DNA of 61,681 nt, filler included, from Rhabdomonas costata (lineage: Eukaryota): the NCBI GenBank assembly GCA_019059605.1. It is 19 parts of 19 records of this genome, joined end to end, with 100 filler letters (N's around TTAATTAATTAA, not from the genome) between each part and the next. Parts side by side here need not be neighbours in the genome. Positions count along the whole stretch, not along the records: positions 35,741 to 38,888 come from JAHMHO010001292.1; 18 more parts are not named here. One strand, 5' to 3'. Position 1 is the first letter of the stretch. The number at the start of each line of letters is the position of its first letter. The notes under the pieces are model-generated. The model had not been told where the DNA came from, searched no databases, and was given only the letters and a program-made list of their open reading frames with translations. The translations under genes and the position numbers were made by a program. Shown here piece after piece: positions 3,254 to 53,476 of this stretch.

Positions 3254-3690
3254 TTTCGTGGTTGCGGTTTCGTGCACTCCCACTCCTCTGCGCCTCTGCT
3301 CTTCCCTCTGCTACATTATTCCCAATTCTTTCTCTCTCTGCTTCTCTGCTTCTCTGCTTCTCTGAATCGTGAACCATTGGACAATGAACGTCGTTGGCTT
3401 TCTTTCATGGTATACCAGATGTACCAAGTAGGTAGTGGTGATATTACTATTACTAGTGCTGAACGTAATGAAGGTCAAAGTCTCGAAGTCCTGGGGTTTG
3501 GTCAAGTTAGTGCGAAGGAATAAAGAACAATAAACGTTTTGAAATTCTGAAAACGTTCCAAAACGCCCTGTTTTTTGTTTTAAAACGTTTTTTGTTCAAC
3601 CTGTGTCACAATGTGGTCGAAGAATACCTTTCAAAGGACGTCTCAGCCTCACCCTCACCCTCAGACCGCTGCCACCATTACACCGCACAG

Positions 3691-9379: not shown

Positions 9380-10008
9380 CTGCACATACACATAAGTCCG
9401 TCGGCTGTCGTGTGATACGTTGGTGTGGAAGGCGTCAAAATGAGGCGACGGGTCATCCTCAATTCGGTCGTCATTATGGTGCATGTGAACCAAACTCGAT
9501 CCGCTTGTATTGCACACTCACCTTGTATTGCAGGCACAGCCGATGAACGATGATGCATCATCACCACAGTCGCCCGAGAACTAATCAGGAAAGGGATTGC
9601 ATTTGCAACAAGATGGACGAAAAATCTTCGGAAGAGCAACAAACGAGTCGAGCCAANNNNNNNNNNNNNNNNNNNNNNNNNNNNNNNNNNNNNNNNNNNN
9701 TTAATTAATTAANNNNNNNNNNNNNNNNNNNNNNNNNNNNNNNNNNNNNNNNNNNNCTTTTGATTTCGTGCGGGGGTGGTTTTGCCACTTCATCGTGCTC
9801 AGATCGATGTACCATCTCCTACGTTTGGAATTAAAACCCATCTGTATATATGATTACTCCCTGTACAATGGAGTCCGACTGAAGACGTTTGGTTTTGTAT
9901 GTCTGTTCAGGCCGATCCATCAACATCCTTGGTCAAGAGAAACTACGCCGCATTTCTTATTCGGCTCCATATGCGCATCTGAGTTTCCACGCCTGCATTT
10001 GTTTCAAG

Positions 10009-13027: not shown

Positions 13028-16000
13028 GCCGGTGGGCCTGCCGGCGCGGAGAAGCTTGTGCGCCGCGAGCTGTGCCAGGTGATCACTCTGGGCACAGTCA
13101 CGGACCTGGAGATGCTCGCCGATCACCGCCCGAATTACCTTCTGGCGATTGTGGAGGAGCCCGAGGGGGGAGCCGCCGCACCCCACTTCGGGGTCTCCCT
13201 TCCGCCCCCATCCTGACTCACGGCGTCTCCCTGTGCCTGCTTTTTTTTGGTTCGGCCGCACCGCTTCCCTCATCACCGATGGTTAAGAATTGAACATCGA
13301 CATGCATTAACGGCCTCCTCTTTCCCCTCCCTCTCTCCCCCTCCTCTTCGACTAGTCCTTGAGGTGACTTCAGTGGGTTTTGGTTGCTACTGGACCTTAG
13401 CGGGTGGCAACTTTCACAATGCGCAATCCATTGGGGATGCACCACCTCCTTCTTGACTGCAAGCTATGTCCCGAGGGACTCTCGCGCTGGGTCGTGTGGG
13501 CGCCAGTGAGGTTTCCAGAGGACGTCCGGAACATCGGAGAAGGAGGGTGGTGAAAAACGGCCACGGAGGGGTGGAGTGCGGATCAAAACCCCGCCAAACC
13601 TTGAAACGAACAGATGCACGGTGCAAGTTATGTGTGTCATCAATTTGGTTTCCTCCAACGGCATGAAAACAGAGACTTTTTCGTTTTGCAGTTCGGGCTC
13701 TCTGGGGTGCCAGGGTTGCTTCCGGCATGGAGGGCTTCAAGAGGGCCCGTGTGGTATATTTTTCCCTGGTTAGGTCTGCTTTGTGGACACCGCAAGGGCG
13801 GAGTTCCACCTGGGCCGAGCTCAGGACTCCCCCTCCCACACCGCGCTGATCACTCTGCTGCACCGCACAAAGCCCAAGGTGTCTCCGGTCCGCGGTCCCC
13901 TCACCCCACCACCCGCTCCACTCTGCCACAGTGCAAACCGCACTTTTGAGCAATGAACATGACAGAAAAAAAGGGGGGGGGTATTGTTTTGTGAGGTGAG
14001 TGAAGCGGGTTCGGTTTTTGATTTCGGACAAAGAGAAGATGAAAGAATGGATGAAACCAGGAGTGAATAAGATGGAAACAGAAAAGATGTCTCTTCCACA
14101 CATGTACGCCTGGTGTTTGCACGATGGACCCTAATGGCATGTTGGGAGCTGTGGGTTGCATTATGGTGTTATAGTATTTCGCTTGCACAGGGTGCAATTG
14201 AGTATGCATCTATGTGGGTATATGTGGCAATGGGTGGTTGGGTGGTGAAAATCCCCCCAAAATATTTGTCTGTAGGAGCTGCTGCTGCTTCGCGGAGCGT
14301 TGAGCAAGGAGGTTCTTGGGGTGGTCCGCCGAGAGCTACCCGGGGGCGTGCTGGCCACTCCCGTGGAGCCCGCCGAGGATTTCTCCAGCGCCGCCGCCGT
14401 GCGCGCTGTGCTGGACTCGGGGCGGTACTTCCCCGTGGGGCAGGCCCACCCAACTGCCCTGCTGTCCTGCCGGGCCTACGACTCGGTACGATAGATACCT
14501 GATGTTCTCTTTTTATTCCTTAGCTGGCAGGCGCAGGGAATCCGCACCAATGTGAGATTTTTGTGCGAGGTTTTTGTGGGACCCATAATTCCAAGGTTAC
14601 AGAATGGTGGGGTGGCGGTGTACGTGCTGCTTCTGGAAAGGGGGTGCGGTTGGAAGGCGCCAATGTGTTGCTGTGGAAGAAAGGCGTTGTGAGGGGCCGA
14701 GGGTCACCATCATCACTGCCCTGCGCCCGTGAGAGTGGGGTAGATCGGTTGGTCGGCGACTTCAGGTGGGTTTCCTTTGGTCACCTGTGGGATTTGCTTC
14801 TCAGTGTGCGGTGTTTGATGCAACTTTTTGTGTTATGTTCGTATTTGCTTTGCTCACCTGTCTGTTGGTGGCTGCGATGGCTGGAAGGATGCGCTGGGCA
14901 GTGTCTCTGGCTGTACGATTGCCTTGAGGTGGCTTACAGTGACATCTGGAGGAGAAATCACCCCCCCTCCCCGATGCACATCTTTCACTGGTGCAGCATC
15001 CCATTTGTTTGGGGTTGAAGCGCGTGGGAGTGCGGCTCCCCGTCTGTGGCGTGTGCCCCCTCTTGGCAGGTCATGCTGGCGGTAGGTGCGGTGCTGTCCT
15101 ACTTGGGCCGGCTGAAGTTGGACCACGAGCTGGTGCCCATGGGGAACTTCGTGGAGTACAGCCCGGAGGCCGACGCCACCGCGGGACGGGCGCTGATCAT
15201 GGACGGCCTCACCCTGGCAAACTTGGAGGCAGCCTGTGACCCCTTCCCCTCAGCCCCCACGAGAGAGGCTGCACAGGCTGCAGAGGCTCTTATGCCATAA
15301 TCTGCTCATTACAATTTTTCGGGTTGAGAGGGCGAAGCACGATCTGCGCTTCCTCCTTTTTTGTAGCTGTTTTCAATGGTTTCTGCGTGAGGAATGCATG
15401 ACATCTTTATTGCCAGGTGTCCATGAGTATTTTACCCCATATGAATTTGCTCTAATTTGTAATATTCATCCACTTTGAGCTTGTTTTGTGGGCACTTTTG
15501 ATGCATGCTAGTAGTGGCATCAGCATGTTCAATACCCTGAAGCAGGATCGCACGTTCTTAGGGTCGTCAGGGACCCAGGCCACTCCCCACTTTCACGGCT
15601 TTTGGGCGGCTTCGCTTTGCTTTGCTTTAGTGTGCTTCTTCACGCTTGCGTGTGTCCTGTGTCGGGTGTGCGCTCAGGTTCTTGAGAACTCCCGGGACCA
15701 CAGTGCTGAAGGTGTGCCTCCAATGCTCTTTACGCAACGCCCCTTTCCTCCAGACCTCATTGAAGAGTCACCGTTCGGTCTCATCACTCGACATGATTGC
15801 CATCTGGTGTCGAACCTTTCCGCATGGCTGGGTTGACAGACGACCTGGACGGGCAACTCCGCTTTCAGATCAACCCAACAACCCCACGGCGAGTTCGTGT
15901 TTTTTTTGTCTGCTGTAGATTCCAATTGGAAAAAAAACAAGGCTCTCTGCTCGCTGAGCTGAACCGCTGCGTCACTCCGTTTGGGAAGAGGCTGCTGAAG

Positions 16001-16117
16001 GTGTGGCTGTGCAATCCCTTGCGGGACATCTCCGAGATCCACAACCGGCTTTCCGCAGTGGAGGTCTTCATGGCCAGCCGCGAGGTCTGCAGCCCCACCA
16101 CCACCACACTCAAGCAC
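13028..16117 (+). CDS. MSH6: DNA mismatch repair protein MSH6, partial (exons 13028-13192, 13774-13878, 14276-14485, 15070-15228, 15678-15711, 15942-~16117)
   Basis: VRRELCQVITLGT, NYLLAIVE, FG|VCFVDT, MDGLTLANLE|VLEN, GSLLAELNRCVTPFGKRLLKVWLCNPL...RLSAVE. These cover MutS domains I-III with MSH6-type motifs, and all junctions are in frame. Confidence 0.9.
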
Positions 16118-16500
16118 GTCTCGAGGCTTTCCTCTTTTCTTTTAAAGCACCCCCAAAANNNNNNNNNNNNNNNNNNNNNNNNNNNNNNNNNNNNNNNNNN
16201 NNTTAATTAATTAANNNNNNNNNNNNNNNNNNNNNNNNNNNNNNNNNNNNNNNNNNNNCCACTGTGGGGCCCTCAGCACGGTGCTTGTGATGGGTTGGGT
16301 GATTTTTCGCCTTGTTTATCGCCTCGATTTGAATTACTGTTCCAGTTTGTGTCGAAAGGGGCCATCAGATTCGGGTGACTTTTTCTGGGGTGTCGTTTAA
16401 TAATTGCTGATTTTTCTTTGCGCTGGTTTCCCAAGCATGGATTTTTTTTTTGGAAGCTGCACGATATGTCTTCGGTCATTGCTTGTCATTTTCGTCATAG

Positions 16501-18197
16501 GTGGGGCGAACGAGGCGGCACTGAGGATGCTTGAGCAGATTGGCTCGATTGACCGGATCCCGATGTACCTGGCGAAGTATGGTTGTGAATTACTAATATT
16601 GCGGATTCTTTCGTCCAATGAATTGTGAATTGATCTATCCCATTCAGATTCGATAATTTTTTCTTGAGCGATTTTGTATTGTCGTGTTTCTCCACATAGG
16701 GCCAAGGACAAGAACGACCCCTTCCGGCTGATGGGCTTTGGCCACCGAGTGTACAAGAACTTCGACCCCCGAGGGAAGATCATCAAGGAGGTGTGTCCGT
16801 GGCACTCACACTTTGGTTCGACTGTTACGTAGCGAGCGGTCTGGTCTTTGGTGGGAGGGGGGGGGCGTAAAACGATATGAGGCTGTTATACAGTATAACA
16901 GTGTTATGCGGTCATGGGGCAGTTTACGATAAACGATTTATGGCCATGCCGTTATCTTTCACGTTGGTCAGCATTGGTGGTAGGAACTTATTCCATGCTG
17001 GGCTTTAGCCAACAAAAAGGATGGGATTTGTTTAGGGGCGGAAGCCAGCCCGCGGCCGAAGCGGGCGGCTGAGGCGGGGAAGTTGTCAATTAGACCGGAC
17101 CCCGTAGCGAGTGTTCGATGCATGTGCGTTTTTCATAACATGGTCGTTGTTTTGTCTGTGCGTATTGGATGGGAATCAGTGTTTAGTGCGTCCACTTATT
17201 TCCAGTTGGTGGTGGGAAATGGGTTGCTCAGGTTTGCCACGAGGTGCTGGAGCATCTGGGGAAGAAGAACGAGCCCCTGTTTCAGCTCGCAATGGAGCTG
17301 GAGCGGATCGCGCTGGAGGCATGTGAAATTGTGTTTCGGCTTTTGCTATAATTGGTGCGTACCTGGTGAGTTATCTTGCCTGATTCTTTCTTTCTGCTGT
17401 TTTCAGGACGATTACTTTGTTGCCCGGAAGCTCTACCCCAACATCGACTTCTACTCCGGCATCCTGCTTCACGGTATGAGGAGCTGTCAGTTGTGGGTGT
17501 TGGTATTGCCAACAAGTCGGTCAGTGTGGCTGTGGATGTGCAGTATTGTCCTTTCTTTTGTCGCCTGCGTGCTTTTCTTTAGGTTGTAATGGTATCAATG
17601 CAAGAAAGTTGCGATGCATTTTTGTGTGGGTGGTGGTGGTGGTGTGTTAAACAGTCAAACCTTTCAACGCTGTTTAGCCATTTAACGGCTCACACTCCCA
17701 AACGAATCGCACCGCTTACTCAAGGATGCCTTGAGGTGAGGGCTATTGCCTTTACTTCGTTGATTTTACCATTCTCGTTTGTTTCCTTTTGTTTTTACAG
17801 CGATGGGGATCCCCGTCAAGTATGCCCCTCCTACTTGACTTTTGTTTTCATGATTCATGGCGATAGTCTCCTGTGCATCTTTATTCTGTGTTCTCAGCAT
17901 GTTTACGGTGATCTTCGCGATGTCGCGGTGTGTCGGCTGGGTCGCCCAATGGAAGGAGATGGTGGAGTCTCCGGAGTGGAAGCTCAGCAGGCCCCGCCAG
18001 GTTTGCGGGCCGCTCACATTTCTCCCGCCCCCACTTTGCTTCTTCCCGCTCACACTTTCTGTGTTTTTTCACTTTTTCGACCTTGATTTCAGATCTACAC
18101 TGGGGCGGTTAAGCGGAACTACGTCCCTCTGCGCGACCGTTTGGCGGACACGGTGGACGAGAAGGTCATGGTCCCGAAGAGCCCGATGGTGGACTGA
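16501..18197 (+). CDS. gltA: Citrate synthase, proteobacterial type II (GltA-like), C-terminal part (exons 16501-16576, 16700-16790, 17232-17318, 17407-17473, 17801-17819, 17898-18000, 18093-18197)
   Basis: [60 protein letters not shown] and RPRQIYTG, ending in TGA at 18195-18197. Includes a 19-nt exon and one GC-AG intron. Confidence 0.96.
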
Positions 18198-18582
18198 GCA
18201 TGACGGGCCGCACCAGCCGACCGTTGAGTCGCTGAGTAGCGTAGTAATTTGCTTTCTTGTGCGAAAACACATAGTAGGTCCGTCACCAGCTGTCCCTGCT
18301 TTCTGCTCAAGGCTGTAGCGGTAAATCGCCCATTTTCCACTGCGAGATAATGTTTGAGCTATCTATTCACCTTGTCCTCATAAGAGCACTTGCTCTTCCG
18401 ACTTTTTGCTGCAGCTTGTTCTGCTGGGAAAATGTGCTTGCTTGCATCCTCGTTTGTTTTTGGCTTCGATACCAATGTGTTGTTGGCTTCACGAACCAGG
18501 GTCACACTCATATCACGACGGCGCGGGTTTTTGGTGCGATTCGTTCCAGACCTGTTTTGCAAACAGAAAGAACCCAGAAACG

Positions 18583-21600: not shown

Positions 21601-24600
21601 ACCCGTCTGTATTTGCGCCACCCCGTCAATCGCAATATCGACGTGGTGGAAAAGGGAAACTGCAACCGCCACAAACTTTTACAGGGCTGCAGTGACGGAC
21701 TCTCTGTAGCGGTCGCCAGAAACACTGCTATTTACTGTGGGGGGGGGGGGTGCAATTTCATTTAAAGACGCTCCAAACCTAAAATTCACGACCCCACAAC
21801 CGTTCAAATCCAAAAATCCTGGTGTTGCATTGAAAATTTTTTGAACGTTAAAGCGTCCCAGGTTGAACTCTCTCTGGTCCAGCGATGCGGAGCCCGCGGT
21901 TGGACGGAGCGGTGACTTTGAGCCCTGTGGTTGTGTCGGTCATTGGCTCTGCGGAGACCCTTTTGGGGGAGGGCAGTGCCTCCGCCCCCGTTCCCCCTTC
22001 GATTTCTAGTGACGATTCCGAAGGAAGAACGCGGCTTCCTTTCGTTGTCGTTGTTGTTCTTTCTAATTCCAGTCATGATGGTCATTGTGATTTTCTGGGA
22101 CCCACTTTTCACCGCCACCACTCGGTGATGCAGCCCGCCGAAGGGCGGGTTTCAAACGCTTGGCTGACATTGGATTGAACTCTTTTGGAATTGGACTTTT
22201 TTGTCCCCGACAAAATCAGTCGCACGCAGGCACACTGTGCGAAAGCACAAGAGTACTTTGGGATCGGGAAAACACAGTGAGATGAAGCAGGGGGGAAAGG
22301 GAAAAAAGGGGGAGAGCTTGAGGAATGAGAGAGGAGCGGCTGAGGCAAACAGGTGGGCGAGGTGGTTGCGGGTGGGCGATTTTGAGAGGACAGGGTGGTG
22401 GTGGTGGTGGTGATACTGATATTGTGAGGGAATGGAGTACGAGTATGAATACAGGTTGGGCCTGGGTGCGTTGTCGATGCGTCCAGAGTGGAAACAAGAG
22501 TCTGCTATAAATTGGTACGTTTGCGAAGAGGGCCCAATGGAAGTTGGAGGCGGAGGGGAGTGGTAACGGTTACCACTGGTAACCGTGGCATGTGGCAACA
22601 AAAAAAACACAAAACAGAAGAACAGAAGAAACTTTTGCAAAATTAACTTGGTNNNNNNNNNNNNNNNNNNNNNNNNNNNNNNNNNNNNNNNNNNNNTTAA
22701 TTAATTAANNNNNNNNNNNNNNNNNNNNNNNNNNNNNNNNNNNNNNNNNNNNGGTTGGGGGGGGCTGGAGACATGTTTGCGAACAGTTTCTGTGCTGCTT
22801 ATTTTCCAATTAAGAGAGATGGATTTCATCCAAGTTTCTTCCGCTGTGGCGGTACCGGCGATGCGTACTCACCAATACTGCTGTCGTATCTTTTACGACT
22901 CTTCAGAAGGCGCATTGCTCGTCACCGTTCAAGCCAGAGACACTCGCGGCGCACCGTTCTGCAGTGTACGAGAGCAGTGCCGCGGCCAAGGTATGCGCGT
23001 ATATGGTCGTTTCACCTGTCCTGCATTTCCCCTTCTTGGTGTCAATTTGCTGCATTTTCTAACTGCGCAGGAAGTACAGAAAGCAGGTGGCTGTTGCGCG
23101 GCCAGCGATATTCCAGGTTGTGCTTCATGGCCTCCTCCAAGGCGTCCGCGCGGGCCAGCAGAGAAAGGTATTGATTTTTTTGTGGAACGGCTCAGAGATT
23201 TTTGCTTACTCCCCAATGCCGGTATCGCGTGTATTTTGGAAGGTAAAAGTGTTCGCCTGGATGAGAGGACTCCATTGAAAACCTTTGGCTTAAAATGTTT
23301 ATAAAGAGGTCTGTGTACCTTCTCCCACCAGATCTTCTTACATCGGGCGTCAGTGTAAATAGCGCGTCCCATCTCATCATCAGAATTTTTCAAACGAGTA
23401 AAAAACGTGTGCCCATGCACATATCTTGCCCACCTCGGTTCCAATCCAGCCCAGGCAAAGCACAAGTGCAGCACGCACGGACAATACAGATACCGGGTAT
23501 ACATTACATACCCAGTCCGGGTATACATGGTATGTGGACATATATATACATGGAATCCACTCCTCTAAGCCTGCAACCTCTGGAAGTTAAACTGCTGACT
23601 TTTCGGAAACCTTCTGAATTATCAGTGAACATTGGCATCATCAGAGCTGGAGCTTTTTCCTCGCCGGGCTTGTCTGTTCACTCACGACCTCGGGGCATCT
23701 GGTTCTGCCTACAGACTCTCCGAAGAGCTCACGAAGCGGAGGTCTTCTGTTGCCTCGGCTCAGCGTCGCCCATGCCCACAGCATCGTCTCCCTGCCTTCC
23801 CGCGAAGGCTTTGGTTGGGAAATGCCGTGACCTCACCTTGCAAAAGCCAAGCGACCCGGCAAAGTGGTGATTTTTCCTCTGCTATCTCTGTCTGTTCTGC
23901 TTTTCTTGGGTGTTGTGAAAGCCGTCTGAGAAAAAGGAGCCTGTCTCTCAAATCTCTCCCTTTCTATCTCTCCCCTTTGCCTTTCCCTTCACCATTGTCT
24001 CTCATTTTCTTCCGTGTTTCTTCCAGCTCCTTCCACTTTCCAGTCTTCCTCCACCGACCTGCACCAGTGAGCAGGAAAAAGGGTGTGTGTGTTGCAGTTC
24101 CCACTTTCAGCGGTTCATCTTTTAGACGTGCTCTTGTTGTTCTGGTAAATTACCATATATCTTGGTGCACTGCCCAATTTTGTCCTTAGTCACAGAAGAC
24201 ACCCCCACCCCAACCCCCACACACCGCCGGGCCCGCTCCTTTCTCTATCGATGGTGAGCGTCCATGTCTCTGTTGTACTAACGACGTTTTCCTGGTGTGC
24301 GTGTGCAAGCGACGCGGACAACGGCGCAGTCGCCTTTTCCTTCGTCTGGATGGAGCCATTTTGGATCTGATCTTGGGTTTTGGTTGATTTTGATCTGATC
24401 TTGTATGGAGACATCTGCGTTCGATGCGAGCATTGAGCTGGAAGCATTCCTTGTTCACTTTTCTTTGGTAACGGGTCTTTACTTTCTACTTTCTTTTGTC
24501 GGTGTCGTTCTTCTTGGTCACAAAATTTGGTTTCGATCCCCCTCTCCTCCGTGTCCGTGGCGGTCTCAGCTGCACTGCAAATCGCTGCCCTGGGATGATT

Positions 24601-27119: not shown

Positions 27120-28083
27120 ATGGAAGCCTTTGACGCTCATTTTCATATCATCGACGACAGGTTTCCCCTGGTCCCGAACAACGGCTACCTACCCCCAAGT
27201 TTCACCGTGCAAGACTACCTGCAAGAGCTGCGAACGAAGTTTTCCACTACCCTTCAGGTCCAAGGTGGCGCTGTGGTCTCGGGCTCCTTCCAGATGTATG
27301 ACCAAAGCTACCTCTGCAATGCCCTGCAGAAACTGGGCAAAGGCTTCGTTGGTGTNNNNNNNNNNNNNNNNNNNNNNNNNNNNNNNNNNNNNNNNNNNNN
27401 NNNNNNNNNNNNNNNNNNNNNNNNNNNNNNNNNNNNNNNNNNNNNNNNNNNNNNNNNNNNNNNNNNNNNNNNNNNNNNNNNNNNNNNNNNNNNNNNNNNN
27501 NNNNNNNNNNNNNNNNNNNNNNNNNNNNNNNNNNNNNNNNNNNNNNNNNNNNNNNNNNNNNNNNNNNNNNNNNNNNNNNNNNNNNNNNNNNNNNNNNNNN
27601 NNNNNNNNNNNNNNNNNNNNNNNNNNNNNNNNNNNNNNNNNNNNNNNNNNNNNNNNNNNNNNNNNNNNNNNNNNNNNNNNNNNNNNNNNNNNNNNNNNNN
27701 NNNNNNNNNNNNNNNNNNNNNNNNNNNNNNNNNNNNNNNNNNNNNNNNNNNNNNNNNNNNNNNNNNNNNNNNTTGGGCTCTCTAAAGAGACCTTCCCACT
27801 GCTGTGCGACCTCTACAGAGACAGGCCGGGCCAGGTCTTCGTCAAGGCCACGGGTTTCATGCGGACCAACTTTACCGAGCCCGAGCTAGAGAATGCTCTG
27901 GGAACCCTGGCCAGCATCGACCCCAACCGGATCGTCTTTGGCACTGACCTGCCCTCGACTCGCGCCAAGTGGCCCTTCTCTGAGATCGATATTCAGCTAT
28001 TGAAGCGTGCCTTCCGACAAAACTCTGACACTCTTCGTAAAATAATGCTAAGCAATGCTCAGCGTCTGTACAGGCTTCTCTGA
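27120..28083 (+). CDS. Amidohydrolase_2 family protein (2-pyrone-4,6-dicarboxylate lactonase-like), bacterial type, with an internal assembly gap at 27356-27772
   Basis: FDAHFHIID metal-binding motif, GGAVVSGSFQ..DQSYL, GLSKE, VKATGF and VFGTDLPSTRA. ATG at 27120 and TGA ending at 28083; no intron in the sequenced parts. Confidence 0.88.
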
Positions 28084-32553: not shown

Positions 32554-34488
32554 CTGCGAGTCTGAGGGGGGCAGCACACTGGCGGGCTGCCTGCAGATGA
32601 TCATCGAAGCGTTCACGAACACCACGCTCCCCTCGTTCACGCTGCCCGAGACCACCACGGTGTCGTCCCACTCAATCCGGCACCGCAGGTAGGTCTGCGG
32701 GGGGGGGGTGCGGAGCAATGAACACACTTCCCACAATCTGCACATATACAATTTCGGCGCACAATGCTGCTTGCCTCTTCGCTTGCTCTGCAACACTCGT
32801 GAGCTGTGCAGCCGTGCACAGATACCGTGTTCTGGAAGCCCTGGCCGAACAGAGAGAGCCAGGTACCCCCCCACATGGGGCCCCGGTTGGGCACCACGCT
32901 ATCGATGTTCGGTGCTGGGGCACGCAGCAAGCGCTCCCCATTATCAGTTGCATGCCCGAACACTACGACTTCGATCTGGTGCCCGTCACAGGTGTCATCA
33001 CTGCCCTAAAGCAGAGAAGGGACAGCACAAAAAGTGTGGTGGTTGTTTTCTTTTCAATTTCAGCCCTGATCAAAATCAAGTGCGGCTTTTATCAGGCGAT
33101 GAAAATGCCTTTAGTGGACGAATCAGGTTTTCATTGCAATTCAATTGGGTTAAGGTCAACCACGGTGACCTTTTTTTTCTTTTTCGACTGTAATGGAAGG
33201 ATTGTATCTTGAACATTAGGTTACAATGGCGAATCCATCTTGCTGGGGAGCGTGCAAGGTCAAAAAGTCAGAAGCATAAAACTATAAGGTTATCACACTC
33301 TCCGGCGCAGACAACGGCAGCACAGCTAAGGTCACCGGCACATCTGGAAGACTTCCCTATATCTCAGAAAAGGTGACCTGAACTGAGAAGCCTCGGATGC
33401 CAAGAAGAGATAGTTTACAACAGCGGCACCAATTTGGTACCAATCTGTCCAACTCTCAGTTTCAGGCACATCATTGACTGCCCGGGGTGAAGGACTGATT
33501 CAAACACTAATATTTCCATAGGGCTGTTGAAGAAGATAGGGGTATTTAAGCCAAATGTGTGTGCGCGCCCCGTAGTCCTCAGCAGTGAGCATCAACAACC
33601 CGACATTTCGAAGATCACCATTCCCGCTCGTGAAGGCCATCGTACAAATGCTACGGTATTCATCATAAAAGCGTTGGCACGACCATAAATGTTTCTGCGA
33701 TATCCCCTCTCACACACGCTATCCGTACTAACATCACAAACACTAAGTTAACACCCTAAAGTGGCTTTTTTGCCCTCCCTGCCCAGCCATGTCCGGTGTG
33801 ACCCCAGACCAGACCTATTTCCTCGAGTTGTGGCAAACCCACAGACTCTTCAGCCTTTCCCATGTCCGAACGTTTTTTTCCCATTTGTTGGTCGCCAGTT
33901 CTCTCCTCTGAACGTGCCATATCTCCTCCGAAGTCAGTTCCTTCCATTTTATCAAGCCGCTCTTTCTTCCTGGAACCCCCCCTCCCTCTCTTTGTTCTTT
34001 GTCTGATGTCTGCTGTTTGCTGGTTGAGGTTTGCACGTGGACCTTGCAGAGAGTTAAATGGCCCAACATCCCCAAATGATGGGCCCAGATGATTTTCCTT
34101 CATTATTGTGAAGGTCCCTTTCCCCTCCCATAACAGTCACACAGTGTTATTTTTGGGTCGTTACGCAAAAAAAAAACTGGCGGCAAACATATTCAGAACC
34201 GGAACCGATGAAATCAGTTGACAATTGTATGAAAATGACAAACCAGCAGGATCCTTGCCAGAAGCTTCCCCCCCCACACACACACACCTCCGGGGCTCGA
34301 CAAATCAGGGTGCTCTTGTCCACAAACTCCGCAGGGACCACGGAGTAACCCGCCGCAGAGTAGAACTGGCACGCCAAGTCGATGGAAGGGTAGAAGCCCT
34401 CCCCGATGATGGTGACGTTGGTCCCTCCTCGGGTATCCGCAATGGAGGGATTGAAGCCCGACACCGCGAACAGCAGTAACGGCACAAG
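32554..34488 (-). CDS. IPT/TIG repeat-containing protein, partial (exons 34488-34288, 33005-32826, 32694-32554; possible extra exon 34984-34848)
   Basis: Two IPT/TIG signatures: FNPSIADTRGGTNVTIIGEGF...FVDKSTLICRAP and IDSVVPNRGPMWGGTWLSLFGQGF...FVNASMIICRQP. Confidence 0.8.
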
Positions 34489-36135
34489 CTGAGGATAAAA
34501 ACGCGCACCAGAGAGCCCAGTAAATTTGCGGCTCACGCGCACGAGTATTTGCCGGTGGGCCTCTTGTATTGGGGGGGGGGGCGTTAAACGTTTAAAACTG
34601 GTAAGCGGTGGTCAATTTTACCCCTTTGTTAATTTATATCCATCTTGGGAACGGGAAAAACGCAGTTGTTACGGTAGAATGAACCCGCAATGGGGGGGAC
34701 CAAGTACAAAGGAAACAAAAAAACTAATTGCCAGGCCCAAGAAGGATGCAAGAAAGATCCAAGAAGGATGAATCGGCGCAACAAAGGAGGGCAGGCAAAA
34801 AGACTGAGTTCCTGGAACAAGTGGGCTTGTAAGTTGCGGCTTTGTGCCTCAGAGTGGAGGCAGCAGGGTGCAGCAGTGGATGCGTTTGAGCGGGCCCTCG
34901 CCCAACGAGCTCGAGAGGTGGCCTGGAGCCGGAACCTGCTCCCAACCCCGGGGCACCTCTGCACCGGCTCCCAGCGTGGGCACCCTGCGGCGCAGGTTAG
35001 AGCCTTCGCCGCTCAACAACATTTCTGTCGGGGGTTTTTGTGGTGGGGCGAAGCGGAAAGTTTGGGGTGTAACTTCTTGATTCTTGATTCGGGGAACCAA
35101 AGTGTGAATGGTTGTGTATGGTGGTATTGCGGTAGTTTTGGCCAGACGGCCGTGGGCGTGGCTTTTCCTTTTCTGAAACCCCCAAAATACTTTTTTTTTT
35201 GGAAAATTGAAGTTGACCTCGAGTCCAAGCCCTCTACGAATCTGGATTCTACTGGTACTGGGCTGCGGTTCAGCTTCTTTCTCTTCAGTGTTTTCTTCAT
35301 GCCTGTAGGACGGCCTTCGAGCTGAAGTTCCAGAGCCGTGCTTTTGGACGGGGTGTTCTCTTGAAGGTGCTCTTACCCCCCCCCCCCATGCACACACCCT
35401 AACCTTTACTCTGTGTTGCTTCCCTGGTTTGGCAAGCTCTCATTGCGGGTGTGTTCCAAAACGCCACCCAAGTTTGCTGCTGCTGCCCGGATCATATAAG
35501 ATGACGATACGTTTTTCGCAGATGCCGTGAGTGCGTGTGCTGGTGTGTAAGCGCTGTTCTATCCCCAATGCTTCGCAACAGCACAGAAGCAAAGTTTGCT
35601 ACAAAGATTCAACGGATTTCCGTTGAATCTTTGTACCAAANNNNNNNNNNNNNNNNNNNNNNNNNNNNNNNNNNNNNNNNNNNNTTAATTAATTAANNNN
35701 NNNNNNNNNNNNNNNNNNNNNNNNNNNNNNNNNNNNNNNNGATTCTCCTTCTTCTTCCTCGTGATCGAGGGGGGTAGAAAAACAGTATACATAACTCATT
35801 TTCTTGAAATTCATGCATATGGGGAAGTTGACATAGTATCCTAACTCCCTATGTGCCCGAAACGTGCCCTAAAAATAACATCTCCAAAAACAAGTTGCGT
35901 CTTTTAGCTGTGCTAAACGGAGCACGTCAAACCCTCCAACTCATCCATCCGCTCCGATGGTCTCCGCACCTAAAAAAAACCTCGTCCTATTTGTCTTCCA
36001 AAACCCACCAACGACAAGTGCAAAAATCTGCAAAGGCAGAAAAAACGTTTCGCAGCGCTAAACAACAAACCCCCCAAAACACCACAATTGTCCCGAGGAA
36101 GAGAAAACCAAAACACTATTAACACACACCCAGAC

Positions 36136-38887
36136 CTCAAGGAGCTGCGCAGCGAGCTCCAGCTCTGCCCGGGAGTCCTTCTTCAGAAGCTCCTGCAGGA
36201 CCTTCCCCAGTCTGGCAGGAAAAAAGCCGATCCTACTCGACGGGTAGAGAGATCTTTGGTTGCAATAATCCTAAAGTTTCATAAAATATCTGAAAACGGT
36301 GCTAAGTGTTGCAGATTCAAATATGTTTCGGCATCATTCATTAGGGCATGTGCGTGTGGGATGGCTGCCATATTTTGGGACATCCTGTCCACTTCGGAGA
36401 CCCCAAAGCGCATGCGGGAGATCAGCCGGTCGAATTGCAACGCAAATGCTTTTCGTTGCACTCGCAGTGAAGCAGAGCGTGGCACCAGTTGGCTGAAGCG
36501 GGTCAGAAAGGGCGAATCATGTTGAGCAGCGAGAGCTGCACTGGGCTTTGACGGAGTTGCATCTTCATCGAATACACCGTTTTCGTGCGTTTGAGAATTG
36601 GCATTGCTCTGAGCGGAGCTTTCTAGCCGATGTTAACTGAAAGTTACCTCTTAAGGCTAACAAAGCTACCATAGGTAACGGTTTTCAATGGTAGCGATGC
36701 GTACTTGCCGAAAAGACGAGAGCTCAGTTATCTTCTGAAAAAATTTCGCTTATGATCGGGGTTTTGGGTAGGTGCAAGCACCCCCCTATCGCATATGGTC
36801 ACTGCAAAAAAGGTAGAATATCGGATACTCAAAGGAGCACACGTGGAGGAGGTTCCAAGAATCCGACAGGCCTCTTGCAGGAGCTCCTTCCGCCCAAAGC
36901 GGTTCACGGGGCGGCTGAAGCCCGAGCCCAGAAACGCCACACAGTTCCCCCGCGCGATCTCATCCAACAGTGCACTGTGCTTCCGCACCTCATGCTCCGT
37001 ATCGAAGCACGGGATGGGGTACCGCAGCACTAGCCGCGCATCCACGGCGTTGCCTAGGAAGGTACGCGGCGACCAAAGACCGATGGCGTCGAACGGAGTA
37101 CATTGATAAATAAAGTGTGCACTAAAACTGACCAGTCTGCTCGGCGTGTTTTAATCCAACAAACTGTGCAATTGGAAGGCGGGAGTGGGGAGCTCGGCTC
37201 CCAATATCCCCCAGGATGCAATAAATCCCCCAGACTCGCCTGTGTCGCATTATTTCCCCCGATATCTTAATCTTAGGATTATTTTTGGGGTGTTCTGTAA
37301 AGCGGACGTTTTTGCATTTCCTGCGATATTTCTCATCCACTTACACTTCGTTGCAAGCAAATCCAACAAATAAAGGCACAGCAAGAGTAACAGGGCGCAA
37401 CCACCGTCAGTAAAAAACCTCGCAGGTTGCATTTCTTTGCTGCTCGTTTAGGGAGCGCTGTTCGACCATGAGCACCCTTTAGTGCTCGAGGATAAAGGAG
37501 AGGAGTGAGAGGCAAACAGGCATCCCACATGACCTATTCTGCTATGCCTCCGCATCACCATTTCGACAAACGTCAAGGTAAACTCCTGCCCGTTCACCTT
37601 CACGTCGCGACAGGCCAGGCCCTTCCGGTACGCCTGCTCAATCTCATACGACTCTGCAGCGTCGAACGGCTGATCGGGGTGCTCCGGAAGCACAGCCGTC
37701 TGATCACTCACCCAGTGGATCACCGCAAGTTGTAGCTCGTCGTAGAATTCTTTGTAGGGATTGTAAGAGCCAGCCGGCACGGAAGGAATGTCGTCAGGAC
37801 ATTGCTGGGGATGCAGGAAACTTGAGCTCCCAATCACCGGTGCGCCAGCGGGTGGAACAGCCGTTCTCTTCTTCGGAGTGGAGAGGACAACCAGCCGCCC
37901 TTTGGTACAGGTGTACAGTGTGGGCATGCCGGACGTCCTGGATGGAATGAACAGATGCCCCAACACACCTTCCTCTCGTCTGTAAACGTCATCAGCTTCG
38001 TCTTGAGTTGCCTTTTCTATAAAAAGCTCGCCAGCTGCTGCACGGGTAGGAAAGCCAGCAGCAAACGTAATCACTTTCATCCATTGATGCTCTTTCACTG
38101 CCTCCTGAAATAGTTTACGGACGGTGTATGACCACACAGCCAATAGTTGCCCGGGATCTTTGACATCACTGTCACCGTCGAGTTCTATGACAACAGTCTG
38201 CAGCCATTTAAATTCGTCAGTCTTGAAAGGAGCAAGAATCCCTTTGACCCACTCCTCCACCACAAGTTGCTGCATCCCTTTGGACCCAGGTTCCAACAAA
38301 GCTCCCAATTCCTTAAGACACACTGTCTGCACGTACAAGGTTCGGAAAAAGCTCAGGCGACGGCGCATAGCATGGTTATCAGGCGTGACTTTGGAGGAAA
38401 GACAGATCAACAAAACACTGAGAAGGCGCCGCTCGGGAGGTTTGCTCTTCGAAATGCAATCCCGTAGAGTCTCATGCAGCTTCCTAATTTCTGGATCGCA
38501 TTTCTCGCTTTGGGGATCGAAGACATCGTTGTCTTTGAGAGATTCGGCTGCCGGAAGCCCGAGTTTGGGAGCCGTGACGGTAAGGCAGGCTGGAGGCAGC
38601 AAGGACTTGCTGACATCTTCGGAGGAAACTGTCACCGCTTCCAGAGAAAAGATTATCACATCAAACCACGATGGCTTCTCGTCGTAGCAGGAGTGAAGGA
38701 AGGCATCCACTAGGAGGGACACACCCAGCAGCTTTTCAGACTCGCCCACCCCAGCCTCGATAACAATAGCGTTCAGAAAGGCCAGCGGCTTGCAGTGGGC
38801 GTCGGTTCCGATGTACTCCCGCAGGGCGGGCTGAAGATATTTGCTCAGCTCGGATGTCAGTTTCCAATCGTCACCATGAACATGTCT
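36136..38887 (-). CDS. Multidomain protein with a WWE domain followed by a SIR2-like domain, partial (exons 38887-37534, 37053-~36872, ~36211-36136)
   Basis: The ORF is open from the contig edge for about 450 codons. A WWE-like segment (W...PFDAAESYEIEQAYRKG...VNGQEFTLTFVEMVM..SRIG|NAVDARLVLR) splices in phase 1 to LLDEIARGNCVAFLGSGFS...ELLQE; a later exon encodes ELELAAQLLE. Confidence 0.65.
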
Positions 38888-39397
38888 TNNNNNNNNNNNN
38901 NNNNNNNNNNNNNNNNNNNNNNNNNNNNNNNNTTAATTAATTAANNNNNNNNNNNNNNNNNNNNNNNNNNNNNNNNNNNNNNNNNNNNAAGCTGCCAATG
39001 GGCGTGGGTTGGTATGGACCTGAGGGTAAAGGGACTGCACCGCAGGAGATGCACTTTAGACAGAAACGAGCCCGCGGACTTGTTTCGTCTTAGCCCTCCC
39101 AGAATCCTTTCAGTGGGTGATCGTCCTCGGTACGTCAGATAATTGATGGGGAAGGGAGCAAGCCGATCCTTGAATGAGCGCCGGCTCCCATCCTCTTTCT
39201 GTCGTGCTGCTACATCCGTTGCGTTAAGTGGGTAATGGGTTTACGGTAGCTGCGTGCGGGTTTTAGAAAGCTGCGGGGTGGCTCCCTATATGCGGTCCTT
39301 TACCTGTGATGGTTTTATTTACTCGGCTTTTTGGTAAGGACCCCAAATGTGTGTGCCTCTCTGAAATCTTCTCTCAAATCCCCCGCCCCCACCTCAG

Positions 39398-41496
39398 GCC
39401 AGCTGCACCGTCAACACGTACTGGGTGTCCGAGGAGCTGGCTTGCCTGCCCTGCCCCACGGGAACTTTCAACACGGCCTAGGGACTAGAGGAGTGCTTCC
39501 CCGTGCCGCCCTCGTCCTCTACTGGGCTGACTCTCCCGCTCGTCGCGGGCCTCGGTGGGGGCTGCCTTCTGGTGGTACGTGCCTCTGCCACGCACAAACG
39601 CCGTGCTGCTCGTTTTAAGTTGGCTGAGGTAGGGTGCAGTGTCGGCCTGTGCCTTTGAATGAAGCCCTTCAATTGCACATGAATTCTTACTCATTATTTC
39701 GTGGTGCTGTTGGTGGTGCTTGGTGGTGGTGGTGCCGTGCTTGTAACTTTGACATCTAAGTGCCGCATCTGCCGACTCTTAACTGCCGCATCCCGAGCGT
39801 GATACTGGGAAGGTCAGTTGGGTCTCGTCGCGCTCCTTTCCCATAGTTTGAGAAAAGCAAAAGATTCATGCCAGCAGGACGGAGGGGTGAGGGGCAGGCT
39901 GGATTCTGGTGTGCCCGTGGTTTGTCTCCGTATGTCCAGGTTTTTCTGGTCGCCTCCTCCGCACTGTACCTTCGGAGGCAGGCGGCTGAGCGCCGGGTGC
40001 TGGCCATGGCGCCCACGGGAACTATAGCCATTGTGTTCACGGACATCCAGGTGAATTCCCCGCACCCCATCGCCCCCCTTTCGCAGGTCGCGGGTTGTGC
40101 CTTCCACTTTCATTGACCGGTGGTGTTGCCGTGCTGTTGGTCTGCTTACCGGCCACCGGACTCGTTTTTTTTCAGAATCAGAATGATGTCAAGAATACCC
40201 AAGAAAGCAGGATGCACGCTAGCGCGTCCCGGCAGCATGCCTGGGCGGGTATCCCAAATTGCGACACAAGCGAATGGCAATACAGGCTGTTCCCGCCGCG
40301 TTTTCTCCATATACGGAGCTGCATCGACAATTGTTGTCACCCAACTATTGCCAGTCTTGTTTCTTGTTTCGCATGCTCTCTGCTCCTGGGATCCTCCCGA
40401 TCAAAGGGGTCGACGCAACTGTGGGACCAGCACCCCGAAGAGATGTCCGCGGCCCTGGAGCTCCACAACCGGGCGATCCGGGAGGAACTGGCAACTTTCG
40501 GGGGCTACGAGGTGAAGACCATCGGAGACAGTTTCATGGCATGCCCGCTTCGCTTCACATCACGCACGGATGCGGGCACTGCGTCGCGAAGCGTTTAATC
40601 GAAGGAAGATGTCACTACACTGCGAAAGAATGAGCGATATGAGGCAGATGGTGAATTTTTGAAAGGAATCCCGAATTGTCTTTCAGGTTGTGAAGAGATG
40701 AACGTATCACCACAGAACAAGGGTAACCTCTCTGCCCCCTTTTTTTTTCGCCCTGTTCGCTTCCATTTTATCGCCAGGGTACTCTTCTCTCTCACTCCAT
40801 TTTCCACGATGTATATACCGTTGATGTCCTCATTCTCCATTTCGCAGATTGCCTTCCCCAATGCGCTGGACGCCGTCGCGTGCTGTGTGAATATTCAGCT
40901 CAGCCTTCTGACCCTGGAGTGGCCCGACGCAATTCTCCAAACTGAGACCGGGCTGGCCATCACCAATGAGGACGGCACACTTCTGTGGAGAGGTCTTTTC
41001 CCCCATGCCGCTGATGATACATCTCTCTGACCCATGGCTGTACTATTCTTTTCGTGACTTGCACGAGGTTCCCTCCTTTTGGAAACAAAGTTGTCCCACG
41101 CTTACAGCGAGATGTACTCTCAAACACATGTGTGATAATTCAGTGTCACATGCTCTTGAGACCTCCATTCTTGTCTGGCATTGCACAGTCGCCCCTTTTC
41201 TTCTAGTGGCACAGCTGGTCTCACCGCTGACGTGGTTTTGTTGTTGCTGCGATGTTTTTTTACTTTCAGGACTTCGGGTGCGGATGGGGGTGCAAGTCGG
41301 GGAGCCCGAGGTAGTGGTGGACCACTCCACGAGCCGGGTGGACTACTTTGGCCCCATGGTGAACCAGGCGGCGCGGGTGGAGTCCCGGGCGCATGGCGGG
41401 GAGATCTGCCTGACCCAGGAAGTGATGAACATGATCGGACGGGCTAGATACACCGACGACTGGGTCATCACGGCTCTGGGGGAGCAGTCCTTCAAG
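39398..41496 (+). CDS. Receptor-type class III adenylate cyclase, partial, with one in-frame TAG at 39479-39481 (exons 39398-39574, 39940-40050, 40407-40538, 40848-40992, 41270-41496)
   Basis: Cys-rich CLPCPTGTF motif, a transmembrane helix, IVFTDIQ|GSTQLW, GYEVKTIGDSFM|IAF, GLRVRMG and DYFGPMVNQAARVES. The substrate-specifying Lys/Asp and both metal-binding Asp residues are present. Confidence 0.93.
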
Positions 41497-43489
41497 GTGT
41501 ACCCCTGTTTCTTCAAGTTTTTGTCTGAAGGAGCATCTCTGTGGAATTCGGTCAGAAACAACACCCCCAGCAGTGCCGGAACAATGGAAAACCGGCACAC
41601 AATGGGCCATTGCCTCACTTTTCGTCCACCACTACTGAAACCTTGCCCCTGCATTTTTGTTTGGGGTGCAGAGCAAAGTCCGGCGAATAACCATACCATT
41701 CAGCACCGTTCAACGTTCTGTTTGGCATTGTCATGCAAGTTTAGAGGTGTATGCCATGGCATGAAAGGATCGTAGTCCTGCAGTCTTACAGTGAGTGCAG
41801 TTGCTCACACAGTTGCACACACACAGGCACACACACACACACACTGGGATTCCAGGCGCCGCTTCATGGAGATGGATGCGCCTGGAGAAGGCCATATCGC
41901 CGGGGGGTGGGGGGCAAAGATTGTGGCCCTTAATGTGGCTGCGTCTCTGTGGAGTGGGATGGGGTGGAGCCCTCCCCTACACACACACACACACACACAC
42001 CCTGAACTTGCCATGATGAAGACGCACCCCGACCTCAACCTGCGCAGCACGAAAGGAGAGCGAAGCCAGTACGTGAGGAATCGCTGCAGTCGGGAAATCG
42101 AGGACTCGGAGAGGCGGAACAGGAAGAAAAAGAAGAANNNNNNNNNNNNNNNNNNNNNNNNNNNNNNNNNNNNNNNNNNNNTTAATTAATTAANNNNNNN
42201 NNNNNNNNNNNNNNNNNNNNNNNNNNNNNNNNNNNNNGTAAGTCTTTATCACAGCGCGCCATTGCAATCCGATGGGGTCGTTTCTGTTATTTTTTCTTTT
42301 TTCTTGCTCATTTCAGATTTGTGTATTTTCAAAAGTGCTGGTTCACAGAGGCGCTGCCGTTATCCAACATGGCCTTTGACAGGTGTGAGCACTTTCCGAT
42401 GCTTTCTCATTAACGTCATGCTCTGTTATTGTCCCTCGTTTTTACGTGTTGTTCGCCCATCACGTCCAGTTCCTGTTAACATTTCTGTCCCTTCTTTTTC
42501 TTTTATTATGCTTGTAATTGCTTTGTATCGTTTTGTTTTGGCCTTGCTATTCCGTTTTGTGCTACTGGGTCTGAACTAAAGCCAATTTTCCTTGCTTTTA
42601 CATTTTGCGTTTGTGTACATTAAGCCCCGGCGGATCCCATAAACCACCACTTCATGCGCGGCCATTTTTGTACGGAACACCGTCAGTCATCTTGACTACC
42701 AAAGGGCCCCGCACGAGGTCCAACGCACACTTCTTGCATGACCACAACTTTTTTCAGGAGAAGCGGCGGACGGTGAAACCACCTCTTGGCGGCTCTTTTT
42801 TTGTTTTATATCACGTAGATCATTTCCACAGCGCGGCGCGACAACAAAATGGTAGGGATCTTAATGGCGATGGAGTGGCAAAATAACAGCGCCAGATTAG
42901 GACCTTTGTGTGTGCTGACTGCTCTCCCTTGCCATCCACTCTGGATTGGCCTAGCTCTGCTGCAAGGTATATGGGAACATTGTGAGTGATAAACCAGGAA
43001 CCATGACCTTAAAACGTGGTTAAATCAATGCTTCGGATGGACTCCTGCTCCGAAGGCGCGGTTTTATCCAGGGAAATCAATTTATGCGTTGAACTTGTGG
43101 AGCAAATGCCGGCGATATCTGCAACTGTTTGTTGCCGAAGAACCTGTAATGATAATTGGATTGACTGCTGACTTTGATCAGGTCCTGGCAGGGAAAGGTC
43201 GCACAGAAAAACGTCCTGAATTGCACGCGCATTAGCGCTGCCATTTCTTCGGTGGCGTGGGAAGCGGTCAGATTGGTCTGGTTTTACTGCGCTTGGGAGG
43301 CGCGGTACTATGTAGACACACTCATTTTTTGACGGTCGCAAGGAGGGATGGACGCAACCCAGTGGAGGACATCCATATATCAAGAATACCACTTAATTGT
43401 GGCCCTCGTCTTCACTCGGTCTCCCAACATACAAATGACGATGAGGCGTATCGAAAAGGACGCAAGAATACAAGAAAGCACCTTGGAAG

Positions 43490-51875: not shown

Positions 51876-53476
51876 NNNNNNNNNNNNNNNNNNNNNNNNN
51901 NNNNNNNNNNNNNNNNNNNTTAATTAATTAANNNNNNNNNNNNNNNNNNNNNNNNNNNNNNNNNNNNNNNNNNNNGTGGGTTGGGGGGGGCATCATAGTA
52001 CGTCTGACTTCCGCAGCAGCATACACTTTGCACGGCGGAAGCGTGATTTGAATTTTTTTTGTAAAGCAAAGCCCCCTAAAGATCGTACTGATCCATCATT
52101 TTTACTTTTTATGGTGAGTTACTTCACGTCTAGGCATCGGTACCTCTCCCAAAGTTCTGATTTCTGTGCCAGCATAAAGCTGTTCCGCAATGCACTTGTC
52201 CTTCCACTGAAGCAGGTCAACTGGCCGCGTCATGAATCGCAATTGAACCAGGACAGCTCCCAGAAAAAACAGAAAAACAGAAAAACAGAAAAAGAACGAG
52301 GGAAAAGAAACAAGAAGAGGGTCTCATCCTTTTTCCAACTTATCTTTCATAATTTACTGCCCCCTCCCCCAATGTCATGCCAAGAACATGGCAAAGGCAT
52401 GACAAGAAGATGGGTCATTATTGCACTCTGCCGCAGTACCATGAGTTCATTTAATCGTGGTGCCCGCATGACCAATGCGACATCCAGAAGGGTTGCGTGA
52501 AGGAGTGCGGGCAACCTGAAAAGTCACCAAGGAATGACTCCTGGGGCGCCCCGATGGCCTGCAAACCACACAGCAGAAGAACAAGGTCCAAGAGATGATG
52601 TGGGGCAGTGGGGGACTCTTTTTCCAAAAGAATACCCCCTTCATGGACCGCTGCCTCACATCTGGGACCCCCAACGTGATCAAAAGCTGCTTAGACTTCT
52701 GCCGGAACCCCACGAGGAATAGCTTCACGAATGAAAGCATAACCCCAGCAGCATCCACAAGCAGACACCACTGCATTTCCGCTCGGTCTTCCTCGTCTCG
52801 GTCTTGTCTGCCCGTCCCAACCTCCTGTCGCAAACTTCGCGAAAAGACACGGGGGAGATGCGTAAGTGAATGAAAAAGCAGACCTCGTTCGTTCACTAAA
52901 ATACTTCCAAGTTCCTTTTATACGTGCGAACAAGGAACCCGAAAGAAATCGAAAATTCTTTCGTTGGGCTTTGGGTTTTGAGGAATGGAAACATACTTCG
53001 TGGAAGGCATCTCCCGCAATGCGGCTGTGGGACCCGACCCGCCGAGGGAGGAAGAACGCGGGTCAGCGTGGGGCGGGGAGAAAGAGAACCCCGACATGGC
53101 GGGGCGGAGCTGAGGACCCCATGAAGGGAACCCGCTGATCATCGTGGAGAAGGGAGCGCTTGCCGCGTTCGGAGTCGCGCTGTTGCGCGAGCAAAAGCAG
53201 ACAGACGGAAAATCGTTCTCTCTTCACAGTTTTTGTGTGCATGCAAGGAAGTGCGCGCCTGCACTACATGGACAGAAGACCTGAATTGTGCTGACGCTTC
53301 GGCATTCGTACAACTATGGCGCACGAGCGTACCTTGGCATCAGAAACGGCATTCTGCAGGGGCACACCGCGGGATCCTCGCAGAACAAAACGCAAACAAA
53401 AAGCAATACCACCTGAAAAAGGAGGCCGATGACCAAATGAGGTGGCTTCCCCAAACGAAACGAAACAAAACAGACG

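Follow-up and report, generated by a model that had tools for sequence, protein, structure and literature searches.

A 61,681-base stretch of Rhabdomonas costata DNA (assembly GCA_019059605.1), which we call the window, contains a fragment of a gene that encodes a WWE domain directly followed by the beginning of a SIR2 domain of the ThsA/LmuA type. The WWE-SIR2 fusion is almost certainly real and conserved, since a profile built from relatives matches the first two exons of the fragment and also matches ThsA, in the latter case from the GAGxS...W loop onwards. As a whole, the observations are best explained by a family of giant euglenid proteins in which the WWE domain serves as a sensor for a SIR2 enzyme that cleaves nicotinamide adenine dinucleotide (NAD+), the window copy being a diverged paralogue. 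We regard this explanation as fairly probable. SIR2 NADases that carry a ligand sensor in the same protein are already known; what appears to be new here is WWE as the fused partner.

The window strings together 19 unrelated pieces, each 3139-3223 nucleotides long, and does not represent a single locus; the only similarity between pieces is a match of 61 nucleotides (piece 3 versus piece 11). The pieces are joined by 18 identical spacers, each composed of 44 N, the linker TTAATTAATTAA and another 44 N (e.g., 3154-3253, 35641-35740, and 38889-38988). The linker has stops in all six frames, and features are not readable across the spacers. The WWE-SIR2 gene fragment lies wholly within piece 12, on the minus strand. 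Because the window is a chain of unrelated pieces, sequence past 35741 or 38888 is not part of this gene.

The homology of the fragment to the family was assessed with a profile hidden Markov model (HMM), designated A2, that was built from 15 relatives and includes no window sequence. As a control, A2 was run over all 1838 stop-to-stop open reading frames (ORFs) of at least 20 amino acids in the window. Only three of them match, and they are collinear in profile order: exon 1 (E 2.9e-8, profile positions 13-74), exon 2 (E 1.1e-16, positions 76-135), and exon 3 (E 0.081, positions 148-170), the last being weak alone. The next best ORF has an E-value of 1.9. In tblastn searches, three successive parts of the relative P0003 fall on the same exons: residues 945-1357 at 38875..37547 (E 9e-26), residues 1365-1422 at 37036..36863 (50% identity, E 2.8e-11), and residues 1430-1454 at 36210..36136, the latter weakly but gapless and collinear. 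Exon 2 is also matched by P0007, P0008, P0009, and P0010/P0011. One further tblastn match (P0003 residues 1516-1535 to 32759..32700, E 0.013) was rejected as chance: it falls in a Cys-rich ORF of another piece, piece 11, where the family HMM finds nothing. The original prediction, made from the sequence alone, held that only the N-terminus of the SIR2 domain is present. Indeed, the catalytic core of the window copy (TTNY and HG) lies beyond the 3.1 kb piece, and A2 found the remainder of the domain in no other piece among the 1838 ORFs.

The three-exon model (Table 1) comprises 547 codons with no stop. Its long first exon, originally estimated at about 1.35 kb, is open throughout. The phase-1 splice 37534/37053 that had been proposed from the sequence has a GT donor directly after 37534 and an AG acceptor before 37053, joins exon 2 to exon 1 in frame, and is collinear with P0003, P0007, P0008, P0012, P0013, and P0010; homology thus supports the splice joins of the window gene. 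Exon 2, which encodes ...LLDEIARGNCVAFLGSGFSRPVNRFGRKELLQE..., codes for a SIR2-like sequence as predicted but does not appear to end at ...ELLQE: it most likely extends nine codons further, to a GT donor after 36843 that joins the AG acceptor before 36211. We moved the end because the revised model aligns gapless with P0003 and P0008. The predicted later exon encoding ...ELELAAQLLE was recovered as well, ending at 36136 with GT next and collinear with the relatives. A 117-codon open frame inside intron 2 (36282-36632, minus strand) has neither a Pfam match nor a family HMM match and probably arose by chance. On the plus strand of piece 12 there is no ORF of at least 70 amino acids with a Pfam match.

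The WWE-like module that had been noticed at the end of exon 1 reaches the gathering cut-off of the Pfam model PF02825 (21.1 bits), scoring 21.8 bits (E 2.4e-4) over profile positions 14-57 of 67 and 22.0 bits in a second scan. The domain is completed across the splice, as the start of exon 2 aligns with the R.V.RYP end of the module in eight of nine relatives. When A2 is compared with PDB sequences, its N-terminal part matches the WWE domain of Deltex (2a90) at E 1.3e-3 and that of RNF146 at E 0.11. The WWE signature is a conserved Trp, Trp and Glu, and the family pattern reads W.W, PY, S..IE.AY..G, MVQR..R.V.R; the position of the Gln of MVQR resembles that of a ligand-contacting Gln of RNF146. 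In the window copy, the first Trp (HW) and the IEQAY Glu are preserved. Three other residues of the pattern are replaced: the second Trp of W.W (present in 7/9 relatives) by Ser, the Tyr of PY by Phe, and the Gln of MVQR (present in 7/9 relatives) by Met.

The bacterial-style character originally ascribed to the SIR2 part is borne out by A2 and by defense-system models. Against all PDB sequences, A2 gave its best matches to ThsA (7uxt, E 7e-21; 6lhx, E 1e-18; 8bto, E 4e-17), followed by the NADase KomC (E 3.6e-16), DSR2 (E 3e-12), and FAM118B (E 3.8e-6). The ThsA alignments begin at FxGAGxS...SW..LL, and therefore the motif in exon 2 represents the first strand of the SIR2 fold and the loop that follows it. 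Among the PADLOC models, LmuA-SIR2 and ThsA are the best for the family; the LmuA-SIR2 match spans residues 1387-1667 of P0003, which is the entire SIR2 domain with its N-terminal loop.

Relatives were found in two steps of searching. A HMMER search of 1.84 billion cluster representatives with exon 1 returned four proteins at E<=0.001, two of which are real relatives, both from Rhabdomonas costata: P0003 (1858 amino acids, E 1.4e-18) and P0004 (1440 amino acids, E 1.1e-11). The other two, P0005 and P0006, were dismissed as internally repetitive proteins matched in 8-9 short stretches. With the WWE-SIR2 region of P0003 as a query we obtained five more long proteins, namely P0007 from Euglena longa, P0008 from Rhabdomonas, P0009, and the two Petalomonas isoforms P0010 and P0011, together with 21 shorter ones, including P0013 (521 amino acids) and P0012 (783 amino acids). 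All relatives with a species name are euglenids, and the search for WWE+SIR2 architectures in protists that the original prediction had suggested thus succeeded in Rhabdomonas, Euglena longa, and Petalomonas. Other searches were empty within their scope: a word-index search for longer relatives of P0001 (the exon 1 translation) found none among 8000 candidates; metagenome contigs gave 76 pattern matches to P0001, none of them confirmed by tblastn; single-sequence PDB searches with exon 1, exon 2, and the WWE stretch gave nothing meaningful; and P0001 gave only noise against NCBIfam and no match against PADLOC.

According to Pfam, a WWE domain above the cut-off is combined with a complete SIR2_2 domain (PF13289) in P0003, P0007, P0010/P0011, and P0013. 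In P0003 the WWE match (25.2 bits, residues 1319-1365) is followed by SIR2_2 (63.7 bits, residues 1545-1661). The clearest WWE is that of P0013 (34.6 bits, E 2.5e-8, model positions 2-66 of 67), again followed by SIR2_2 (66.7 bits, residues 298-446, profile 3-140). P0012 has SIR2_2 at 69.2 bits and a WWE match of 20.2 bits, just under the cut-off. Nine relatives extend over this region. Six of them reach the WWE cut-off (besides P0003 and P0013, these are P0004 with 21.1, P0007 with 22.3, P0010 with 23.6, and P0011 with 23.8 bits), one is below it, and two have no match. SIR2_2 itself was matched at 48-88 bits in seven relatives and in 12 of the 13 shorter proteins that were scanned. The two domains are separated by a linker of about 30 residues that is gap-free in 8/9 aligned relatives, and the SIR2_2 domain carries TTNY and HG. 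Positions T300, T301, and N302 (the TTN of TTNY) and H349 and G350 (HG) are invariant in 15/15 relatives, as are the A and Q of the AAQ motif of exon 3. P0004 ends about 20 residues after WWE, without a SIR2 domain; either its transcript is truncated or the protein naturally has WWE alone.

The family proteins are multidomain and comprise about 1100-2960 amino acids. A module of about 135 amino acids precedes WWE in every relative; it has no match in Pfam, NCBIfam, PADLOC, or PDB sequences. A second copy lies further upstream in P0003 (independent E-value 2.7e-11) and P0008 (7.3e-5), and the window likewise has a complete and a partial copy (Table 1). In full-length relatives there are also ankyrin repeats and, at the N-terminus, a conserved stretch of about 600 residues. 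Within the latter, residues ~330-580 of P0003 form a region of about 250 amino acids with 46 invariant columns in five sequences (P0003, P0004, P0007, P0008, and P0010). The ESM Atlas also links this region to a cluster half of which comes from giant viruses, and its link to MavL is unconfirmed by sequence profiles.

The window copy departs from its relatives at the NAD pocket. The intact loop GAGxS...P.W is absent: the window reads GSGFSRPVNRFGR. The original prediction had noted a diverged G.P.W after GxGxS, and in comparison with the 15 relatives this proved to be a change of Pro to Phe and of Trp to Arg. As conserved we counted those columns that vary in no more than one of the 15 relatives and that the window model also covers (n=14). 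The window copy keeps ten of the 14, and the four departures all fall in the loop after the first strand: A174S (Ala in 15/15), A180V (Ala in 14/15), P183F (Pro in 14/15), and W185R (Trp in 15/15). Counted back from the Trp in the A2-ThsA alignment, the Ala and Trp of the loop correspond to A32 and W43 of SeThsA. Structure 7UXT is SeThsA. According to the SeThsA preprint, these two residues contact carba-NAD+ and contribute to the nicotinamide-riboside pocket; A32 additionally holds the pyrophosphate by its main chain, and a flip of W43 lets the substrate in.

Since the loop Ala and Trp and three family residues of WWE are lost, we regard the window copy as a diverged paralogue; that it cleaves NAD+ is doubtful, and we consider its catalytic competence rather improbable. 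The best identity of this copy to any relative is 34%, and searches of the 1.84 billion cluster representatives and of metagenome contigs found no closer one. In a tree of the module-WWE-linker region with seven rows (the window model, P0003, P0004, P0007, P0008, P0010, and P0033), none of the four inner branches is well supported; the window copy joins P0004 there at 86/88 with a long-branch warning, and nothing is drawn from this tree.

These departures raise the possibility that the window copy is inactive. The paralogue could be a pseudoenzyme or scaffold, or else a gene that began to decay recently; it would have kept the WWE-SIR2 shape and lost NAD+ binding and cleavage, and perhaps WWE ligand binding too. 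We hold this to be unlikely, yet it survives best among the alternatives. All four departures are in the NAD-pocket loop, two of them at invariant positions that would contact carba-NAD+ by the correspondence with SeThsA; the second Trp, the Tyr, and the Gln of the WWE pattern are replaced; and no ortholog was found in the representatives or metagenome contigs searched. On the other hand, the three exons stay open over their entire length, the copy has preserved most of the conserved columns together with the linker and the AAQ helix, and Ser in place of Ala preserves the main-chain contact made by A32. The catalytic residues, being off the piece, weigh neither way.

For the family, the reading that we prefer is as follows. 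Piece 12 carries the middle of a gene for a giant multidomain protein in which, by homology, one or two copies of the ~135-residue module are followed by WWE, a short gap-free conserved linker, and a ThsA/LmuA-type SIR2 domain (SIR2_2). The SIR2 domain would consume NAD+, as we infer from the invariance of its two catalytic residues, the Asn in TTNY and the His in HG. WWE, situated directly upstream, may be a sensor of an ADP-ribose-containing ligand that gates SIR2, similarly to SLOG in ThsA and to WWE for the RING domain of RNF146. Both parallels have precedents: 3'cADPR activates the SIR2 NADase of ThsA through SLOG, and binding of poly(ADP-ribose) (PAR) to WWE allosterically activates the RING domain of RNF146 (PMC8883491). 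Judged by these analogies, the gated-NADase mechanism is a serious possibility for the family that falls a little short of probable.

Several points weigh against this reading. Of the two Pfam profiles named in the original prediction, WWE (PF02825) matches the window, while SIR2_2 (PF13289) matches the relatives but has no match in the window at E<=10, because its model starts only near TTNY, beyond the piece edge. The WWE match of the window, though above the cut-off, is marginal; P0008 and P0009 have no WWE match in Pfam at E<=0.1, and that of P0012 is below the cut-off. Relatives with a species name come from transcriptome assemblies; the fusion recurs in several species and in P0012, whose gene was called on genomic DNA (a contig of 532 kb). 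The splice joins are based on homology, not on RNA. The visible NAD pocket of the window copy is degenerate, which speaks against this copy being an active effector. Finally, ligand binding and enzymatic activity are inferred for every member of the family.

An alternative for the sensor part is that the WWE-like module has a structural or protein-interaction role and does not bind ADP-ribose, SIR2 being controlled by the ankyrin repeats, the ~135-residue modules, or a C-terminal domain. Not all WWE domains bind iso-ADP-ribose, and the scores are marginal in most members (20.2-25.2 bits against a cut-off of 21.1), with no match in two of nine and a weak profile match to the WWE of RNF146. However, P0013 matches the model over nearly all of its positions, the profile does match the Deltex WWE, and the family retains the pattern W.W, PY, S..IE.AY..G, MVQR..R.V.R. 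We consider this alternative improbable.

The least likely alternative, which we give little credit, is that the family writes and reads ADP-ribosylation without depleting NAD+: SIR2 would modify a target, WWE would read the mark, and the N-terminal domain might erase it. Macrodomain-linked sirtuins are protein ADP-ribosyltransferases (PMC12700824), and the ESM Atlas places residues 200-600 of P0003 near clusters in which MavL (score 0.92, on 32% of members) or MavL-like ADP-ribosylhydrolase (score 0.86, on 97% of members) is annotated; but the SIR2 domain is nearest to the NADases ThsA, LmuA-SIR2, KomC, and DSR2, and the MavL lead was confirmed neither by Pfam nor by a five-sequence N-terminal profile against PDB, whose best match is a lectin (E 0.019).

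Among known systems, the best relatives of the family SIR2 domain in the structural database are the ThsA proteins of type I Thoeris (SIR2-SLOG). ThsA and the family share the GAGxS..W..LL loop, TTNY, HG, and GFSFTD. ThsA joins a SIR2 NADase and a binding domain for an ADP-ribose-derived ligand in one protein, and the same arrangement is conceivable for the family, where binding by WWE is presumed. In contrast, ThsA is a bacterial protein of about 480 amino acids whose C-terminal SLOG binds 3'cADPR made by a TIR partner, whereas the candidate sensor here is an N-terminal WWE in a giant eukaryotic protein. A Thoeris system combines SLOG or Macro as the sensor of ThsA with ThsB, a partner that has a TIR domain. 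No TIR, SLOG, or Macro domain was found by Pfam in any member, and the ThsA matches in PDB and PADLOC cover the SIR2 part only. Thus the resemblance to Thoeris is at most an analogy, and the family is not a member of that system. LmuA with SIR2 (Lamassu, PDLC03856) is the top defense model for six of the seven members scanned (52.8-84.4 bits), ThsA being higher for P0007. However, in Lamassu, a prokaryotic operon, LmuA is accompanied by the SMC-like LmuB, and nothing of the kind is seen here.

Eukaryotic comparisons are more distant. FAM118A and FAM118B are eukaryotic SIR2_2 proteins, and theirs is the nearest ESM Atlas cluster, with a score of 0.90. According to PMC12700824, they show modest NAD-processing activity and filament formation. 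Unlike the family, they are single-domain proteins of about 350 amino acids, described as vertebrate-specific and without WWE, and their relation to the family is much weaker than that of ThsA. A preprint surveying EukProt (10.1101/2024.09.18.613514) describes SIRim, i.e., SIR2 antiphage homologues across eukaryotes that often carry immune-type domains; it distinguishes five clades with NACHT/TPR or Macro fusions, Macro, an ADP-ribose-binding domain, being found in one clade. The main text of that preprint contains no mention of WWE, Euglen, or Discoba, and its supplementary tables may list euglenid members. RNF146, a WWE-RING E3 ligase, is similar in that WWE adjoins a catalytic domain that is switched on allosterically by PAR binding (PMC8883491), and differs in that its effector is a ubiquitin ligase rather than SIR2. 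The architecture was not recognized among characterized proteins in the original prediction; in agreement with this, a full-text search of the literature found no WWE-SIR2 fusion, only reviews and reference-list mentions.

A bolder view is that euglenids have assembled an eukaryotic counterpart of the Thoeris logic from different parts: WWE would sense an ADP-ribose-derived signal (PAR, iso-ADP-ribose, or a small nucleotide messenger) and, via a rigid 30-residue linker, switch on a ThsA-type SIR2 that destroys NAD+. The giant protein may also carry an ADP-ribosylhydrolase-like N-terminus, and the window copy would be a non-catalytic regulator or decoy. We offer this view as a speculation that is unlikely to hold in full.

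Table 1. Features of the WWE-SIR2 gene fragment in piece 12 (positions along the whole window)
Feature	Position	Strand	Remarks
Piece 12	35741..38888	.	3148 nucleotides between two N44-TTAATTAATTAA-N44 spacers; gene truncated at both edges
Upstream partial copy of ~135-residue module	38639..38851	-	P0001 residues 13-83; HMM of the downstream copy, independent E-value 6.2e-6; cut by the piece edge
Complete copy of ~135-residue module	38036..38440	-	P0001 residues 150-284
Exon 1	37534..38887	-	1354 nucleotides, 451 codons, no stop; 5' end open at the piece edge; translated as P0001
WWE, exon 1 part	37544..37786	-	Pfam match residues 407-448 (37544-37669); family-profile match residues 368-448
Intron 1	37054..37533	-	480 nucleotides, GT..AG, phase 1, pyrimidine tract
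Exon 2	36843..37053	-	Last WWE strand (to ~37016), conserved linker, first strand, loop and helix of SIR2
NAD-pocket loop GSGFSRPVNRFGRKELL	36878..36928	-	Family GAGFxxPAxxPxWxxLL; window A->S, A->V, P->F, W->R
Intron 2	36212..36842	-	631 nucleotides, GT..AG, phase 2, pyrimidine tract; revised model
Exon 3	36136..36211	-	Helix ending ...ELELAAQLLE, then GT; carries the AAQ motif
Intron 3, start	35741..36135	-	GT at 36135-36134; runs to the piece edge; no further exon recognized

The other pieces carry fragments of different genes. In piece 2 (plus strand), ORFs 3543-3947, 5125-5355, and 5769-6137 match successive parts (220-272, 270-316, and 313-373) of the profile of the N-terminal domain of Aquarius, the intron-binding protein, i.e., they are exons of a spliceosomal helicase gene. 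Piece 13 (plus strand) has two exons, 39990-40595 and 40912-41772, of the catalytic domain of a class III adenylate/guanylate cyclase. Piece 11 (minus strand) includes an IPT/TIG domain exon (34150-34611, 25.4 bits) and the Cys-rich ORF mentioned above (32640-33005), which has no Pfam match. Housekeeping fragments in other pieces encode MutS domain III (15797-16156, plus), a helicase C-terminal domain (9883-10407, plus), a rhodanese (8990-9517, minus), and the C-terminus of citrate synthase (17854-18315, plus). Many pieces open with G/T-rich runs (GGTTGGGGGGGG..., GTGGGTTGGGGGGGG...; e.g., 13008-13025, 22753-22770, and 51976-51995) and many close with C/A-rich runs (...CCCCCCACCAACAACC, ...CACCCCCAAAA; e.g., 12880-12907 and 16130-16158), which looks as if the assembly was broken at inverted copies of one simple repeat. 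A gap of 417 N at 27356-27772 lies inside piece 9 and is unlike the 44-N halves of the spacers.

The known SIR2_2 NADases act as effectors under the control of a fused sensor, which is SLOG or Macro in Thoeris and, in DSR2, a domain that binds the tail tube. Their eukaryotic homologues, FAM118 and SIRim, have been tied to immunity only recently, and to our knowledge almost nothing is known about ADP-ribose/NAD+ signaling of such a kind in Euglenozoa. Because the window copy is a fragment and looks degenerate, the finding owes its value to the family and not to this locus. With a conserved WWE-SIR2 fusion, the SIR2_2 NADases would gain a new kind of sensor, and ligand switching of SIR2 becomes concretely testable. 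If the proposed reading is true, a eukaryotic module that reads poly- or mono-ADP-ribose would be linked directly to NAD+ destruction in Euglenozoa.

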